Below, in pieces: positions 6,062 to 62,051 of a stretch of 64,000 nucleotides of DNA. The translations under genes and the position numbers were made by a program. The stretch is from Octopus vulgaris (taxonomy: Eukaryota). Numbering within the stretch: position 1 is the first letter of the stretch; each line of letters opens with the position of its first letter. Location of the stretch: positions 8,556,001-8,620,000 of the forward strand of contig OX597837.1 in assembly GCA_951406725.2 (NCBI GenBank), read 5' to 3'. Below the pieces are notes generated by a model. It had not been told where the DNA came from. It searched no databases and worked only from the letters and a program-made list of their open reading frames with translations.

Positions 6062-6991
6062 TAAATAGCTATAAAACAAATGAAATCCAAACTAAAAATA
6101 GAACAGCAACGAACCATGATAAAACGATGGCAAGAAAAGCCCCTTCATGGTAAATACTGGACTAAACTAAACGCAAAAGAAATAGACAAAGAAAAATCCC
6201 AGCAATGGTTGAGAAGCTCAGGACTCAAAGCAGAAACAGAGGGATTTTTAATTGCAGCACAAGACCAAAGCCTCCCCACCAGAAATTACCAAAAACATGT
6301 AATGAAAAGAAATATTACAAGTAACTGCAGAATATGTGGAGATGGACAAGAAACAATAAATCATATTATCTCTAGCTGCCCAGTCCTGGCTAAGAAGGAA
6401 TATATTCACAGACATGACAGAGTTGGAACCTACATACATTGGAAGCTATGCCAACATTATGGAATAACAACAGAAAAAAGATGGTATAGGCACACACCAG
6501 AAAAGGTCACAGAAAACGAGAGGGCAACCATACTCTGGGATATGCCGATACACACAGATAGAGAAATTAAGGCCAACAGGCCAGATATAGTTGTCAGAGA
6601 TCATGAAGAAGAAAAAAATGCTTTCTAATTGATGTATCAATACCGGCAGATGACAACGTGTCTCTAAAAGAAATGGAGAAACTCTCAAAATACAAAGACC
6701 TGGAAATAGAGGTAACTAGAATGTGGAATCTGAAAACAGAAACAATTCCTATCATAGTAGGTGCATCAGGCATGATAAAAAAATATACAGATAAATACAT
6801 AACAAAAACACCAGGACTTACAAACACATATAACATACAGAAAATTGCACTACTAGGCACTGCACACATCCTACGCAGAACACTTTCCATACAATAACCA
6901 TCAGAGCATCACAACAAATCACAGCACATACCCAAGGCACACAGAGCTGCGCTCGGTAGTGAAGTGAAAGCACGCTATAAAAATAAAACTA

Positions 6992-15395: not shown

Positions 15396-15611
15396 CACCT
15401 GTCCCTATTTCGACGCAGTCTACCTATTCATCTATCTATTTATCTATCTACTTATTTTGATTACGAATTTAATCAAATATATATGCGGAATGCTTACCGA
15501 ACGTAAAATGCCGAAGTGGGTATCGCACTTCATTGACAAACGTAGTTCTTTCAAATGAGCACATGATGCCAATCGCGATGTCAACCCTCCTCGTCGTCCT
15601 TCTTGCTCCTC

Positions 15612-16056
15612 CTGTGATTTGTTGTGATGCTCTGATGGTATTGAAAGTGTTCTGCGTAGGATGTGTGCAGTGCCCAGTAGTGCAATTTTCTGTATGTTAT
15701 ATGTGTTTGTAAGTCCTGGTGTTTTTGTTATGTATTTGTCTGAACATCTTTTTATCATACCTAATGCGCCTACTATGATAGGAATTGTTTCTGTTTTTCG
15801 ATTCCACATTCTGGTTACCTCTATGTCCAGGTCTTTGCAATTTGAAAGTTTCTCCTTTTCTTTGAGAGACTCGTTGTCATCTGCTGGTATTTATACATCA
15901 ATTAGAAAACATTTTCTTTCTTCATGATCTCTGACAACAATATCTGGCCTATTGGCCTTAATTTCTCTATCTCTGTGTATTGGCATATCACAGAGTATGG
16001 TTGCTTTCTCGTTTTCTGTGACCTTTTCTGGTGTGTGCCTATACCATCTTTTTCTG
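15612..16056 (-). mobile_element. Third Dong-like copy (RLE region), 5' end abutting a (TTA)n tract
   Basis: Minus ORFs RWYRHTPEKVTENEKATILCDMPIHRDREIKANRPDIVVRDHEERKCFLIDV and MWNRKTETIPIIVGALGMIK...ILRRTLSI match 6470-6920. Confidence 0.92.
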
Positions 16057-16079
16057 TTAATTATTATTATTATCATTAA

Positions 16080-16172
<93 letters not shown>

Positions 16173-16656
16173 CAGTGTTAGCAGTAGTAGTAGCAGCAGC
16201 AGCAGCAGCAGCCGTTCATGAATTTGAACCTGGAGATCTCCATTTCCAGCGACTTCGAGGGCCACCTGCCGGTGGTGTCGGGCGTCAACAAAGAGCCCTC
16301 GACTACAACAAGACGACCAAAGTTTTCTTTTTCCAATGTCTGGGGTCTCTCGCCCCTAAGCCCTAGACCATTACCTAATCATTCTTACGCGTCTTGTTGC
16401 TTAACAACAACAACAACAACAGCAGCAATATTAGTAGTAGTAGTAGTAGTAGCAGCATCCGACGCAATAGTAATAGTGTAGTGTGAGAGTTGTTATTGTT
16501 AATAGTATTACATAATAATTACAGATATGTTATCATTTACACAGCAGATGCTAAACCATCCAACAAAGAGCAAAAAAGGAAATAATAAACGAAAAAATGT
16601 ACACCGTATCATTTATCAGTGTGCAATATTGTACTTTCTTCTTCTCTATCAGTAAC

Positions 16657-23085: not shown

Positions 23086-23237
23086 CTTTATTAAAAAGCA
23101 TAAAAAATATCACAAAAACTGCTACACAGAGTTTCACGTTTCCGTTCGTCGGACATTGTAAACGAAACTTCCTGACGAACGGGAACGTGAAACTCTGAGT
23201 ATCAGTTTTTGTGATTTTTTGCTGATTTTTAATAAAG
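23086..23237. ncRNA. Fold-back inverted repeat containing minimal hammerhead motifs
   Basis: Plus strand 23172-23201: CTGACGA-ACG-GGAA-CGT-GAAA-CTCTGAG-TA. Mirrored degenerate copy on the minus strand; AATAAA downstream; adjacent to (CATA)n. Confidence 0.75.
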
Positions 23238-23449
23238 CATATTACTCTATCTCTGGTATTCGAGTACTATTTTTTTCGACCTTGTTTCGCATTCGGGAAA
23301 TATTTATTCAAGGTAGGGCATTGTGAGATCGAAACCGAACCAACGTGATTTCGAAGTAGCATTGTTTCTTCTTAGGTTTTTCTTGTATGTCTTCTTGCAT
23401 TGAGCCGAGGTTAAGTTCCTATTATATCTTAAATATTGGTTAAAAAATC

Positions 23450-28744: not shown

Positions 28745-29289
28745 AAGGCAGCGAGCTGGCAGAAACGTTAGCACGCCGGGCGAAATGCGTAGCAGTATTT
28801 CGTCTGCCGTTACATTCTGAGTTCAAATTCCGTCTAGGTCGACTTTGCCTTTCATCCTTCCGAGGTCGATAAATTAAGTACATGTTACGCACTGGGGACG
28901 GTGTAATCGACTTAATCCCTTTGTCTGTCCTTGTTGTCCCCTCTATGCTTAGACTCTTGTGGACAAGAGATAAGAAACGTTAGCACGCCGGGCGAAATGC
29001 TTAGAAGTATTTCGGTTGCCACTACGTTCTGAGTTCAAATTCCGCCGAGGTCGACTTTGCCTTTTATCCTTTCGTGGTCGATAAATTAAGTACCAGTTAT
29101 CCAAGGATTGACAAACGGATTAAGTCGATTATATCGACCCCAGTGCGTAACTGGTACTTAATTTATCGACCCCGAAAGGATGAAAGGCACAGTCGACCTC
29201 GGCGGAATTTGAACTCAGAACGTAACGGCAGACGAAATACACTACGCATTTCGCCCGGCGTGCTAACGTTTCTGCCAGCTCGCCGCCTT
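28745..29289. mobile_element. Two plus-strand and one minus-strand Meta-like SINE copies forming an inverted pair
   Basis: 28745-28970 and 28974-29099 on plus, 29110-29289 on minus. Confidence 0.88.
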
Positions 29290-56208: not shown

Positions 56209-56510
56209 CGTATGTATGTAGATACACACACACGCAAACACATATATATATGTATGTATATAAAAGTGCTTAATGAAATTTTGATACGGATTTATACAAA
56301 TTAAAATCTCGTTTGCTCATCACACCAAACCATTTCTTCATTTGTGTGACGGACCAATGCAATTTAAGTTCTAAGGAACCAAATGAAACTTATCGAATAC
56401 TTATATATATACCCGTACCTAACGTGATGAGATCCTCTTTCATCCATTTGTATATATATATATGGGTAGGGTTGTGTGTGTGTGTGTATGTATATATTAC
56501 GATAAAATAA

Positions 56511-56815
56511 ACTAGTGGTTCGCCAAAGGAAATCGATATGTTAGCGGTTCGCCAAAGGAAATCGATATGTTAGCGGTTCGCCAAAAGCGATAGATAAAAT
56601 CATTTAATCGATATCTTTTGTCGAAGCGTTAAGTTATTTTATCGACATCGTTTGGCGAACCGCTAATGTTATTTTATCGATCACATTTTGGAAACTACTA
56701 GTGTATTTTATCGATCTCCTTTGCCGAAAGGGGATGTTATTTTATCGATCTCCTTTCCCGAAACGTTAATTTATTTTATCGATCACGATCGGCGAACTGC
56801 TAAGTTATTTTATCT
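56511..56815. repeat. Minisatellite of ~29-35-bp units in two opposite orientations
   Basis: Three units tagcggttcgccaaaggaaatcgata followed by six inverted units of the form atcgatctcctttgccgaaccgctaagttatttt. Confidence 0.85.
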
Positions 56816-58034: not shown

Positions 58035-58199
58035 GGCGCAGGAGTGGCTGAGTGTTAAGTAGCTTGCTTCCCCACCACGTGGTTCCGGGTTCAGTCCCAC
58101 TGTGTGGCATCTTGGTAAAGTGTCTTATACTATAGCATCGGGCCGACCAAAGCCTTGTAAGTACATTTGGTAGACGTAAACTGAAAAAAAGGGCCGTCG

Positions 58200-58202
<3 letters not shown>
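58035..58202 (+). mobile_element. OK/OR-type SINE 5' half
   Basis: ggcgcaggagtggctgagtgttaagtagcttgc...ggttccgggttcagtcccac. Confidence 0.85.
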
Positions 58203-58255
<53 letters not shown>

Positions 58256-58363
58256 AGTATGTATGTATAAGTATATGCATATATATATATATATATATAT
58301 ATATTTATTATATAGAAGGAGCTTCTACAGGACTAGAACTGTTTCATTCAAAAGAAATCATCA

Positions 58364-58418
58364 GGGGCTTCCTGATGATTTCTTTTGAATGAAACAGTTC
58401 TAGTCCTGTAGAAGCTCC
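58364..58418 (+). ncRNA. Type I hammerhead ribozyme inside a perfect 63-bp-arm inverted repeat
   Basis: GGGGCTTC-CTGATGA-TTTC-TTTT-GAAT-GAAA-CAG-TTCTAGTC-CTG-TA-GAAGCTCC: 8-bp stem I (one G-U), intact core, GUA site after 58410. Inverted repeat arms 58303-58365 and 58371-58433. Confidence 0.85.
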
Positions 58419-58498
58419 TTCTATATAATAAATTAATTTACTCTGCTATGTATTGAGTACCTTATTTACTGTGGTTAACTCCGACTCAACCCGGGACC

Positions 58499-58542
<44 letters not shown>

Positions 58543-58705
58543 TGAAATATAAATTACTGGTTATGCCAGCTTCTAAGGGATCGATGTATCCGTAGGTACA
58601 CCTGGTGTATTACCTCAATATATATAGTCCTAGGTATAAGGTATACAATAGTAGATAATTTAAAGTTATAATCGTGGTTTGATATATATATATAGAAGAG
58701 AAAAG

Positions 58706-58877
58706 AAATGGAGCAATAATTAACAATGAGAAGTGGTTCATTGGTATTAAAAAGTCATTATTTAATTGTAGTTCGGAACCATTTACGGAAACAGCTGAAA
58801 ATGGTTCCAGGCTACAATTAAATGGTGACTTTTTAATACCAATGAACCACTTCTCATTGTTAATTATTGCTCCATTT
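58706..58877. repeat. ~80-bp-arm inverted repeat between (TA)n tracts
   Basis: aaatggagcaataattaacaatgagaagtggttcattggtattaaaaagtca... and its reverse complement; the centre contains GAAA-CAGCTG. Confidence 0.9.
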
Positions 58878-59003
58878 ATTTTCCTCTTTCTCTCTATCTC
58901 TCTGTATATATATATATATATATTTATATACACACACACACACACACATATATATATAATATATATATATATCTCTCTATATATATATATATATATATAT
59001 ACA

Positions 59004-59587: not shown

Positions 59588-60206
59588 CTAGCAGTATCGC
59601 CAAGCGTTGCTCGGGTTAGTTTCAACCTTTTAGAACTGGAACTTTTGAAAAGTAAAACTTTTGCATTATGTACCTTGTTATTCTCTTTAAGTGAATATTT
59701 TTCTCGTTGAAATAGACCGTAAAAAACGACACAGCAGTCAAAATGTCGTAAAATATAAGGATTTTCATAGAAGAAAAGCACCTTTTTGATGTAAATGATT
59801 TTTGGTGTTAACATGGTCCGATTTGAATTTTTTCTTCTACAGAATGAAGAGTAAACCTTCTATCATACTCTCAATTTTTATCAACTTGCGGCGCAGGGTT
59901 TCGGAAGAGATAGTGTTAGTTGAAGGCTACTAAACCTGCCACACACACACACAGACAACTTCAGCTTTATAAATAGTGAAAAATAGGGATTTTCATAGCA
60001 AAAAAGCACCTTTTTGATGTAAATAATTTTTAGTCTTAACATGGTCCGATTTGAATTTTTCCTTCTACGGAATGAAGAGCAAGCCTTCTTCTATCCTACT
60101 ATCAACTTTGGTCAACTTGTGCCGCAGGGTCTTGGAGGAGATAGTGTTAGTTGAAGACTACCAAACCTGCCATACACAGACAACTTCAGCTTTATATATA
60201 TAAAGA
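59588..60206 (-). mobile_element. Non-autonomous Helitron (Lep1-like) with internal tandem duplication
   Basis: Minus strand starts TC at 60206 and ends with hairpin CCGAGC-AAC-GCTTGG followed by CTAG|T at 59588; ~225-bp unit repeated (59757-59975 and 59985-60203). Confidence 0.7.
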
Positions 60207-61821
60207 CATTATATAGTTTTCTGGCCAAGACATTATAATTTAATAACTTGTTAACATTTATTGTACGATAGTGTAGAAGATTTGCCGGAATGCTAAATAT
60301 ATTGTAGAATATAGAATGCATTACGGTGAAATGTTATTGGATTGTCAACAATCAGTTCTTCTAATTGGAGACAGGATAGCAACGTCCATTGTTGGAAAGT
60401 CATTTCGCAGTTTCTGCTGTTTGTGACGTTGTTATTCCATTGTTGCTTGTCATACTGATGGTTGTATCATCTGCTGTTCATGTCATTATTATTCCATCGT
60501 TGTATGGTATTACTTGATGTTGCTGTCATATTTATATAACGTAATTGGCATGAGGTTGTGTTGGTGCTGAACTAAATTGGGAAGGTCTGTATGCGGTGGA
60601 ATGAGTTGCTAGAAATAATCGCAGACAACTAAATGCAACACGGGTGGTTAGGAAATTAATGGCGAACCTTTTATTAGTCTCATCAAATAATAGTTACGTA
60701 CAAGGGTTTTCAGTAATAATTGCAAGCTAAATTACTCCCAAAACGACCACGGATTTCATGCAAAACTCTCATATTAGAATAATTTGTGATTGTTGGGGGT
60801 GCTTGCCTCCCCTTTGCAAATATAAGGACACAGGAAGTGTGTCAAAGCCGACAGGAAGCATCGAAGATTCCTAGGGCTATATAGCGGTGGGGTAATTCCC
60901 TCTATGGGACTTTTACGTTCTGTTGGCTTTATACACCCATTCTATCGCTCCACAACCGCTCATGTCTCTCTGAGACATTTAGAAATTCAATATTTCTAAT
61001 TACGGTGACCAGTGAATAGATTTCACTGTAAATAGATATATTTGCGAAGGCTTGGCAAGTAACACCGCTAGCGGGGACACGCTACCCTGGACTGATGACG
61101 GGTAATACCCGGACGTTGCTATCCTGTCTCCAATTAGAAGAACTGATTGTTGACAATCCAATAACATTTCGCCGTATTCCATAATGCATTCTATATTCTA
61201 CAATATATTTAGCGTTCCGGCAAATCTTCTACACTATCATACAATAAATAATAACAAGTTATTAAATTATAATGTCTTGGCCAGAAAACAATATAATATC
61301 TATATATATATATATAAAGCTGAAGTTATCTGTGTATGGCAGGTTTGGTAGCCTTCAACTAACACTATCTCCTTCGAGACCCTGCGGCGCAAGTTAACCA
61401 AAATTGAGAGTATGATAGAAAAAGGCCTGCTCTTCCTTCCGTAGGGGGTGGTTGCCTCCCCTTTGCAAATATGAGGACACAGGAAATGTGTCAAAGCCGA
61501 GAAGAAGCGTCGATGCTTCCTAGGGCTATATAGCGGTGGTGTAATTCCCTGTACGGGACCGTCACGTTATGTTGACTTTATACAACCACTCTATTGCTCC
61601 ACCACCGCTCATGTCTCTCTGAGATATTTAGAAATTCAATATTTCTAATTGAGTAACGTGTAAATTAAAGGAAATTCCTTTCTCGCGTGAGACACAAGGA
61701 CAAGCATTCGTGGGGGAGCGGAGGGCCGATAATATCGACCCCAATACATTGTTAATACGCTAGTTAATTGTACCCCGACTAATAAATAAAGCGAAATTGA
61801 TTATGACGAAATTTTATAAAA

Positions 61822-62051
61822 TTGGCTGTGTGGTAAGTAGCTTGCTAACCAACCATATGGTTCCGGGTTCAGTCCCACTGCGTGGCATCTTGGGCAAGTG
61901 TCTTCTGCTATAGCCCCGGGACGACCAATGTCTTGTGAGTACATTTGGTAGACGGAAACTGAAAGAAGCCTGTTGTATATATGTATGTGTGTGTGTTTGT
62001 CTCCCTAGCATTGCTTGACAACCGATGCTGGTGTGTTTACGTCCCCGTCAC
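61822..62051 (+). mobile_element. OK/OR-type SINE, 3'-truncated
   Basis: tggctgtgtggtaagtagcttgc...gatgctggtgtgtttacgtccccg. Confidence 0.85.

Follow-up and report, generated by a model that had tools for sequence, protein, structure and literature searches.

Head-to-head copies of a high-copy, hammerhead-bearing repeat end in an octopus (TA)n tract: a likely pLTR-only footprint of a Penelope-like element

Insertions of Penelope-like elements (PLEs) are truncated at the 5' end, where many of them also bear an inverted truncated copy. Their tail is confined to one end, and they show a bias toward microsatellites (PMC8557442). In rotifer Penelopes, the inverted pLTR is shorter than the direct one, and palindromes at the head-to-head junctions have been read as self-priming (PMC3846280). 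In Schistosoma, hammerheads occur on opposite strands, 100-700 bp apart (PMC4209133). The PLE protein of the green anole cleaves AT-rich DNA and extends both target strands; it begins synthesis at two internal sites of the RNA, which delimit the tail, and the RNA it uses is mostly uncleaved (PMC11167929). The origin of the inverted pLTRs and of the tails is described as still unsettled (PMC8557442, PMC11167929).

Here we analyzed a 64-kb stretch of Octopus vulgaris DNA (the window), in which two arms at 58303-58365 and 58371-58433 are exact reverse complements over 63 of 63 positions, separated by the 5-nt spacer GGCTT (58366-58370). This is the fold-back described in the original prediction. 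Complementarity stops directly beyond the outer limits of both arms (58303 and 58433). When 58303-58500 was shuffled 300 times with dinucleotides preserved, no perfect arm exceeded 10 nt, the longest length reached. The right arm, on the plus strand, is a direct copy of the element end that runs through AATAAA. The left arm, on the minus strand, is an inverted, tail-less copy of that end, and the spacer marks the head-to-head junction. A one-sided tail of 68 nt on the plus strand (58434-58501) belongs to the same repeat family. An AATAAA signal and a tail of roughly 65 bp had been placed after the arms; the AATAAA (58427-58432) instead falls within both arms, and the tail that follows is one-sided.

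The left flank (58201-58302) consists of (CA)n, mixed TATG and (TA)n, and the right flank (58502-58539) is an (AT)n tract. (TA)n is present on either side, as had been noted, although the left tract closes the simple-repeat tail belonging to a neighboring high-copy repeat at 58035-58200 (plus strand). That tail served as the insertion target, and a target duplication is unreadable inside such a microsatellite. The neighboring repeat, which is SINE-like, has an 86% copy at 61823-61967. The insertion contains no ORF, and the ATGs within its hammerhead motif reach stops after a few codons.

The hammerhead motif, recognized from its sequence and folding, spans 58364-58418 on the plus strand, with a predicted cut between 58410 and 58411. 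Stem I pairs 58364-58371 with 58411-58418 through eight pairs, one of them G-U, and its outer two pairs (58364-58365) fall within the left arm. The core comprises CTGATGA (58372-58378), GAAA (58391-58394) and GTA (58408-58410). Stem II has 3 bp with a U-U at its base, and the A15.1-U16.1 pair adjoins a 3-bp stem III closed by an 8-nt self-complementary loop. The motif has the CUGANGA and GAAA boxes, A15.1-U16.1, H17 and the three helices of a type I hammerhead, and all of the originally described parts (8-bp stem I, 3-bp stem III, GTA, U-U in stem II) were found in place. It is the sole complete type I motif in the 64 kb, and 1 of 200 block-shuffled windows yielded one. In the left arm, read on the minus strand, the core follows GGAAGCCC, a sequence incapable of forming stem I, so that the inverted copy lacks the stem I 5' strand just as proposed. 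Within the family, N7, which is the free position, was the only place in the core listed as variable (58376, mirrored by 58360).

The motif had also been called intact. This holds for the catalytic core, but the conserved G10.1-C11.1 pair is absent, with the U-U in its place, and Rfam hammerhead models gave no match at gathering scores in the 64 kb and none among 58 rows at E<=10. Those rows are mostly hairpin-driven microRNA models; the top one, mir-1781, scored 54 bits against a cut-off of 68 and was rejected as a generic hairpin match. Among the family contigs, no alternative letter at the G10.1-C11.1 position reached at least 10%. Like metazoan PLE and retrozyme type I hammerheads, the motif has the core residues, the type I topology, a short helix III and a self-complementary loop favoring dimers (PMC4209133, PMC7229834). 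It differs from them in its 8-nt loop 3, in a helix II of 3 bp compared with 7-8 in PLE minimal motifs, and in the missing G10.1-C11.1 pair, which is highly conserved in PLE hammerheads (PMC4209133). Unlike known type I hammerheads, it falls below every Rfam hammerhead threshold. Exceptions to this pair are known: in the axolotl hammerhead HHR_Amex2, helix II likewise has a U-U at its base, and cleavage reaches 22% in 1 h (PMC7229834). The giant squid has 235 hammerhead matches (PMC6962438).

The repeat family was followed in 24 public sequencing runs from 10 studies with five organism labels, none of them recorded as RNA; 20 of the 24 contain at least half of the sampled words. Contigs from four of the runs were compared with 58040-58910 at 88% likeness, skipping the flanking microsatellites. 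Summed contig depth, which is not equal to copy number, was 0.25-2.4 million for 58370-58489 across the three DNA runs, compared with 1.2-31 million for the SINE-like repeat (1.2-11 million in run X1) and thousands for the repeats at 58550-58900. The hammerhead and tail are a very high-copy repeat. Family depth persists into the tail and declines along it, and among the matches listed, 20 X1 contigs halt at 58433 and continue into (AT)n with an agreement of 0.98, at the same point where the short arm ends. Together, these two observations indicate that the family has both tail-less and tailed ends. The core pattern was found at 0 loci in metagenome, genome and viral contig collections, and the tail pattern at 0 loci in metagenome and genome contig collections; these collections are mostly prokaryotic. 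Run X18 (organism E, guessed to be RNA) is deeper over the tail than over the ribozyme. We rejected this as a sign of expression, since species divergence explains it equally and contigs show no ends, strand or level.

At 58366, the first spacer base, most family contigs carry an A (24 in run X1, 15 in X3 and 8 in X2), accounting for 91-98% of the depth there. An A at this position makes stem I fully Watson-Crick, and the G of the window is the minority letter. This A-to-G change in the spacer is the one place where the window leaves the clear family majority; a mutation in the hairpin loop, a reverse transcriptase error or a copy of edited RNA are all possible. From 58367 to 58490, the window agrees with the family majority at all of the variable places listed, apart from 58426, where the family is divided about half and half, whereas the neighboring SINE-like repeat shows several departures from its family majority. 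The proposal of a young insertion is plausible given these majority letters. The perfect identity of the arms may partly come from assembly polishing or gene conversion instead of youth.

Junctions of the same type occur elsewhere in the family. Contig 25 of X3 (84 nt, depth 50, four differences, from a 2023 study) spans the center of the fold-back from 58320 to 58403, with 46 and 33 bases on the two sides of the spacer. Contig 26 spans 58339-58413, with fewer than 31 bases left of the spacer, and the spacer is one base longer in nine contigs of X1 and two of X2. In addition, 5 of the 15 joints listed (of 42) connect the left arm to the right arm elsewhere inside the ribozyme, with minus copies starting at 58376-58390 and plus copies at 58384-58404. 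One of these, joining 58346 to 58384, was found in two studies (runs X1 and X3). Joints with sides shorter than 30 nt at 88% likeness are individually weak, but taken together they show that head-to-head junctions at or within the ribozyme are a habit of this family. The locus is far less singular than originally implied. Among the contigs listed, none ties the exact junction to its own flanks.

The leading entry among the loose ends (24 of 704 listed) consists of 30 X1 contigs that start at 58367 with mixed sequence upstream, at an agreement of 0.62. The two G at 58364-58365 may be native or may come from the left arm; in these contigs the upstream sequence ends in A and has no GG consensus, a hint that 58366 is where many copies begin and that the native stem I is the canonical 6 bp. 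A TATA-like word opens the consensus before 58367; it was rejected as a promoter, being a blend at that agreement.

By analogy with the described systems, the locus very likely represents the usual footprint of an endonuclease-positive PLE, an inverted pLTR plus a tail. The hammerhead motif lies in the terminal repeat, an inverted 5'-truncated copy adjoins the 5' end, and the tail is confined to one end, the family also having a tail-less end at a fixed place. The original prediction of a PLE insertion with an inverted 5'-truncated pLTR is in line with this, and the layout agrees with published descriptions (PMC8557442, PMC3846280), in which the inverted-plus-tail pattern is already in print. 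With the endonuclease-positive insertion units of Penelope/Poseidon, of Neptune and of Nematis, this locus shares the head-to-head inverted copy, the one-end tail, the microsatellite target, the hammerhead in the terminal repeat and the junction palindrome (PMC8557442, PMC3846280). It differs from them in having no ORF and in that both copies are cut back to the 5' edge of the ribozyme. Its 68-nt tail is also about twice the published 30-40 bp, which counts against a PLE, as does the absence of G10.1-C11.1. With the Poseidon element PAc of the green anole, the family shares a ribozyme repeat with a long end about 120 nt later, two preferred 3' ends, an AT-rich target and copies that span the uncleaved site, but the PAc ORF begins at stem II (PMC11167929), whereas the ATGs in the present motif soon meet stops. 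Neither an RT nor a GIY-YIG ORF was found with the repeat here, so that the class assignment is drawn from layout and ribozyme. Our guess at the clade, given the (TA)n target and the ribozyme, is Neptune-like.

A second fold-back in the window supports the same reading. The element at 23086-23300 (fold-back 23104-23220) has arms that align over about 65 nt, are about 90% alike and both end just past AATAAA. Its left arm meets a microsatellite, and its right arm continues into a one-sided tail. A hammerhead-like core, CTGACGA, lies at 23172, and helix II is likewise without G10.1-C11.1. When the two tails were compared, 0 of 500 local shuffles reached the score, which at 39 against a window background of 37 is weak on its own. 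From its sequence, we regard the 23-kb fold-back as a related, older and diverged element of the same plan.

A PLE by-product of one kind or another is highly probable, and we somewhat favor a pLTR-only footprint formed by joining two cDNAs. By analogy with published PLE biochemistry, the endonuclease would nick both strands of the (TA)n tract, and the reverse transcriptase would have two fixed starting points inside the RNA, one near 58501 for the long, tailed copy and one at 58433 for the short copy. Both cDNAs would then cross the cut site and stop at or near the stem I 5' edge, probably the RNA 5' end, after which the two ends would be joined via the few self-complementary bases found there. 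Since the cut site is contained in both copies, the template would have been uncleaved unless the RNA was circular or tandem. Likewise, the clustering of junctions at or inside the ribozyme, together with copies that span the cut site, suggests the copying of uncleaved RNA. The product, with no ORF and one masked ribozyme, would likely be dead on arrival, and any read-through transcript would be a double-stranded hairpin.

The PLE origin could also have involved a single cDNA, snapping back at the stem I 5' edge via one to three self-complementary bases and copying itself as far as 58433 before an endonuclease resolved the product. Self-priming has been suggested for such palindromes (PMC3846280), and endonuclease resolution for the tail (PMC8557442). 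With the family A at 58366, the junction would close a 3-nt loop with three native pairs, and one template explains why both arms carry the same letters at the family-variable positions 58376, 58383, 58399 and 58426. However, priming through one to three pairs is weak and a second fixed cut at 58433 would be needed, whereas two reverse transcriptase starts and extension on both strands have been shown in vitro (PMC11167929). Contig summaries cannot separate snap-back from the joining of two cDNAs, which counts against a firm choice of the latter. We hold snap-back to be a real possibility, though an unlikely one.

The very high depth of what is a 135-nt piece, and the 30 X1 contigs, among the matches listed, that start at 58367 with mixed sequence upstream, could alternatively suggest a short non-autonomous element, such as a retrozyme monomer or a palindrome amplified as a unit, in place of repeated truncation of a full-length PLE. 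Retrozymes have been argued to derive from pLTRs (bioRxiv 10.64898/2026.07.22.740005), and the non-LTR retrozymes are also non-coding, high-copy and equipped with a type I hammerhead (PMC7229834; bioRxiv 10.64898/2026.07.22.740005). They differ in being head-to-tail tandem units with a hammerhead each, where the present locus is a single head-to-head unit. The window contains one family copy and no tandem copy, and the places of the junctions vary, unlike those of a unit amplified whole, which makes a short element improbable.

Folding estimates, which cover secondary structure and ignore tertiary contacts and proteins, point to a silent ribozyme in this copy. The whole hairpin folds at -105 kcal/mol, with the ribozyme conformation 73 kcal/mol above the ensemble and a predicted ribozyme fraction of about 1e-52 to 3e-52, which strongly predicts the masking of the ribozyme by a read-through hairpin that had been proposed. 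The isolated motif (58364-58418) has a predicted fraction of 5e-2, which falls to 1-2e-2 once downstream sequence is added and a competing hairpin covers the cut site. The further proposal that transcripts starting near the spacer could cleave is weakly supported at best. A start at 58364 gives a predicted fraction of 1-5%, but one at 58366 gives 1.5e-4, inclusion of 11 nt of the left arm gives 5e-7, and the dimer fold is favored. Two copies are predicted to co-fold as a classic dimer via the CUAG loop at -35.8 compared with -25.8 kcal/mol. PLE hammerheads that cleave as dimers were reportedly the subject of a 2017 paper. A family variant at 58399 (14-28% of depth) raises the self-complementarity of loop 3 and would strengthen such pairing. 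Dimer pairing has been described for metazoan hammerhead motifs (PMC4209133). Plausibly, the ribozyme of the family is active, with dimer formation or a protein probably assisting it, while that of the present copy is silent.

Such masking might instead be a selected RNA switch, in which read-through hides the ribozyme, whereas transcripts begun close to the spacer leave it free for cleavage. The predicted contrast between the isolated motif and the whole (5e-2 vs 3e-52) would suit a switch, and the helix II U-U is compatible with cleavage, as in HHR_Amex2 (PMC7229834). The permissive start window is only a few bases wide, however, and the competing hairpin hides the cut site once downstream sequence is present. 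The insertion produces such a layout by default, the locus looks young and sits among repeats, and the anole PLE ribozyme required protein for cleavage (PMC11167929). A switch is very unlikely, and the models predict masking as a by-product of the hairpin.

Perfect arms, a window G at 58366 that is the minority letter and the missing link between junction and flanks among the listed contigs might also point to an assembly or library artefact, i.e., a chimeric fold-back, and PLE inverted structures are known to trouble assemblies (PMC8557442). Against this, the contig from the 2023 study bridges the center with differing arms, the same joint is present in two studies, the short arm ends precisely at a natural end of the family, and the older fold-back at 23 kb has the same plan. 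We consider an artefact highly improbable. Insertion of a MITE or a fold-back DNA transposon at TA would account for a palindrome bordered by TA, but is extremely unlikely given that the inverted repeats are not terminal, with 68 nt of the same family on one side only, that a ribozyme sits at the center and that the junctions vary.

Taken singly, the locus matters little, being a clean example of a described insertion pattern. A high-copy family with ribozyme-clustered junctions could offer many natural products for testing PLE models. Our literature search, with most subscription papers outside its coverage, found no publication on this repeat family or on ribozyme-clustered junctions. Terminons are said to be treated in a 2017 paper. 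Such palindromes would be ready ADAR substrates. Octopus has an unusually high share of loci able to form near-perfect dsRNA, and Penelope is heavily edited in lizard (PMC5625713). Tentatively, we propose that in the PLE families of this genome the 5' edge of the hammerhead is both the RNA start and the preferred place for head-to-head joining of reverse transcripts of uncleaved RNA. The resulting ribozyme-centered perfect palindromes would be mass-produced, every one of them with a ribozyme that it silences itself, and would rank among the main sources of the long dsRNA hyper-edited in this animal group. If this is true, thousands of junctions in the genome could be read to decide whether PLE transposition proceeds by two-cDNA joining or by snap-back priming.

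Elsewhere, the window holds four complex fold-backs with spacers of up to 80 nt, including the present one and that at 23 kb. A multi-copy repeat at 58540-58682 (depth up to a few thousand) directly follows the insertion, between two (TA)n tracts. Another fold-back (58696-58888; arms within 58700-58883) lies 260 bp from the insertion, also between (TA)n tracts, and has 85-nt arms with six mismatches. Its 14-nt spacer contains GAAACAGCTG, which is like a hammerhead 3' half; its arms are multi-copy, and its center is covered in X1 only, at depth 26. Farther on, an inverted pair at 60065-60387 and 61111-61444 is about 330 nt long and 91% alike, encloses about 720 nt of inner sequence and has further partial copies at 59748-59975. 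The right arm starts within a decayed CTGATGA hammerhead-like motif at 61092. This is possibly a longer PLE-type insertion; no clear ORF was seen in six frames of 60065-61444. Kinship of the 58.7-kb and 61-kb elements with the insertion was rejected, as 288 and 314 of 500 shuffles, respectively, scored at least as well. The fourth fold-back (29007-29240) is a pair of another common repeat, and no hammerhead-like motif was seen in it.

The 98 stop-to-stop frames of at least 110 aa in the window are mostly simple repeats. A Pfam scan of two of them gave one zf-RVT fragment at 6065-6625 (E 1e-6), which is unrelated to the insertion. This stretch and 15444-16355 contain fragments of a non-LTR retrotransposon C-terminus, with the zf-RVT match in the first and similar peptides in the others. 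A bacterial promoter scan gave two sites where 3.6 were expected and is uninformative here. Upstream of the SINE-like repeat, 56500-56811 is made up of arrayed units, each 29-34 nt long, whose ATCGAT cores occur in both orientations.
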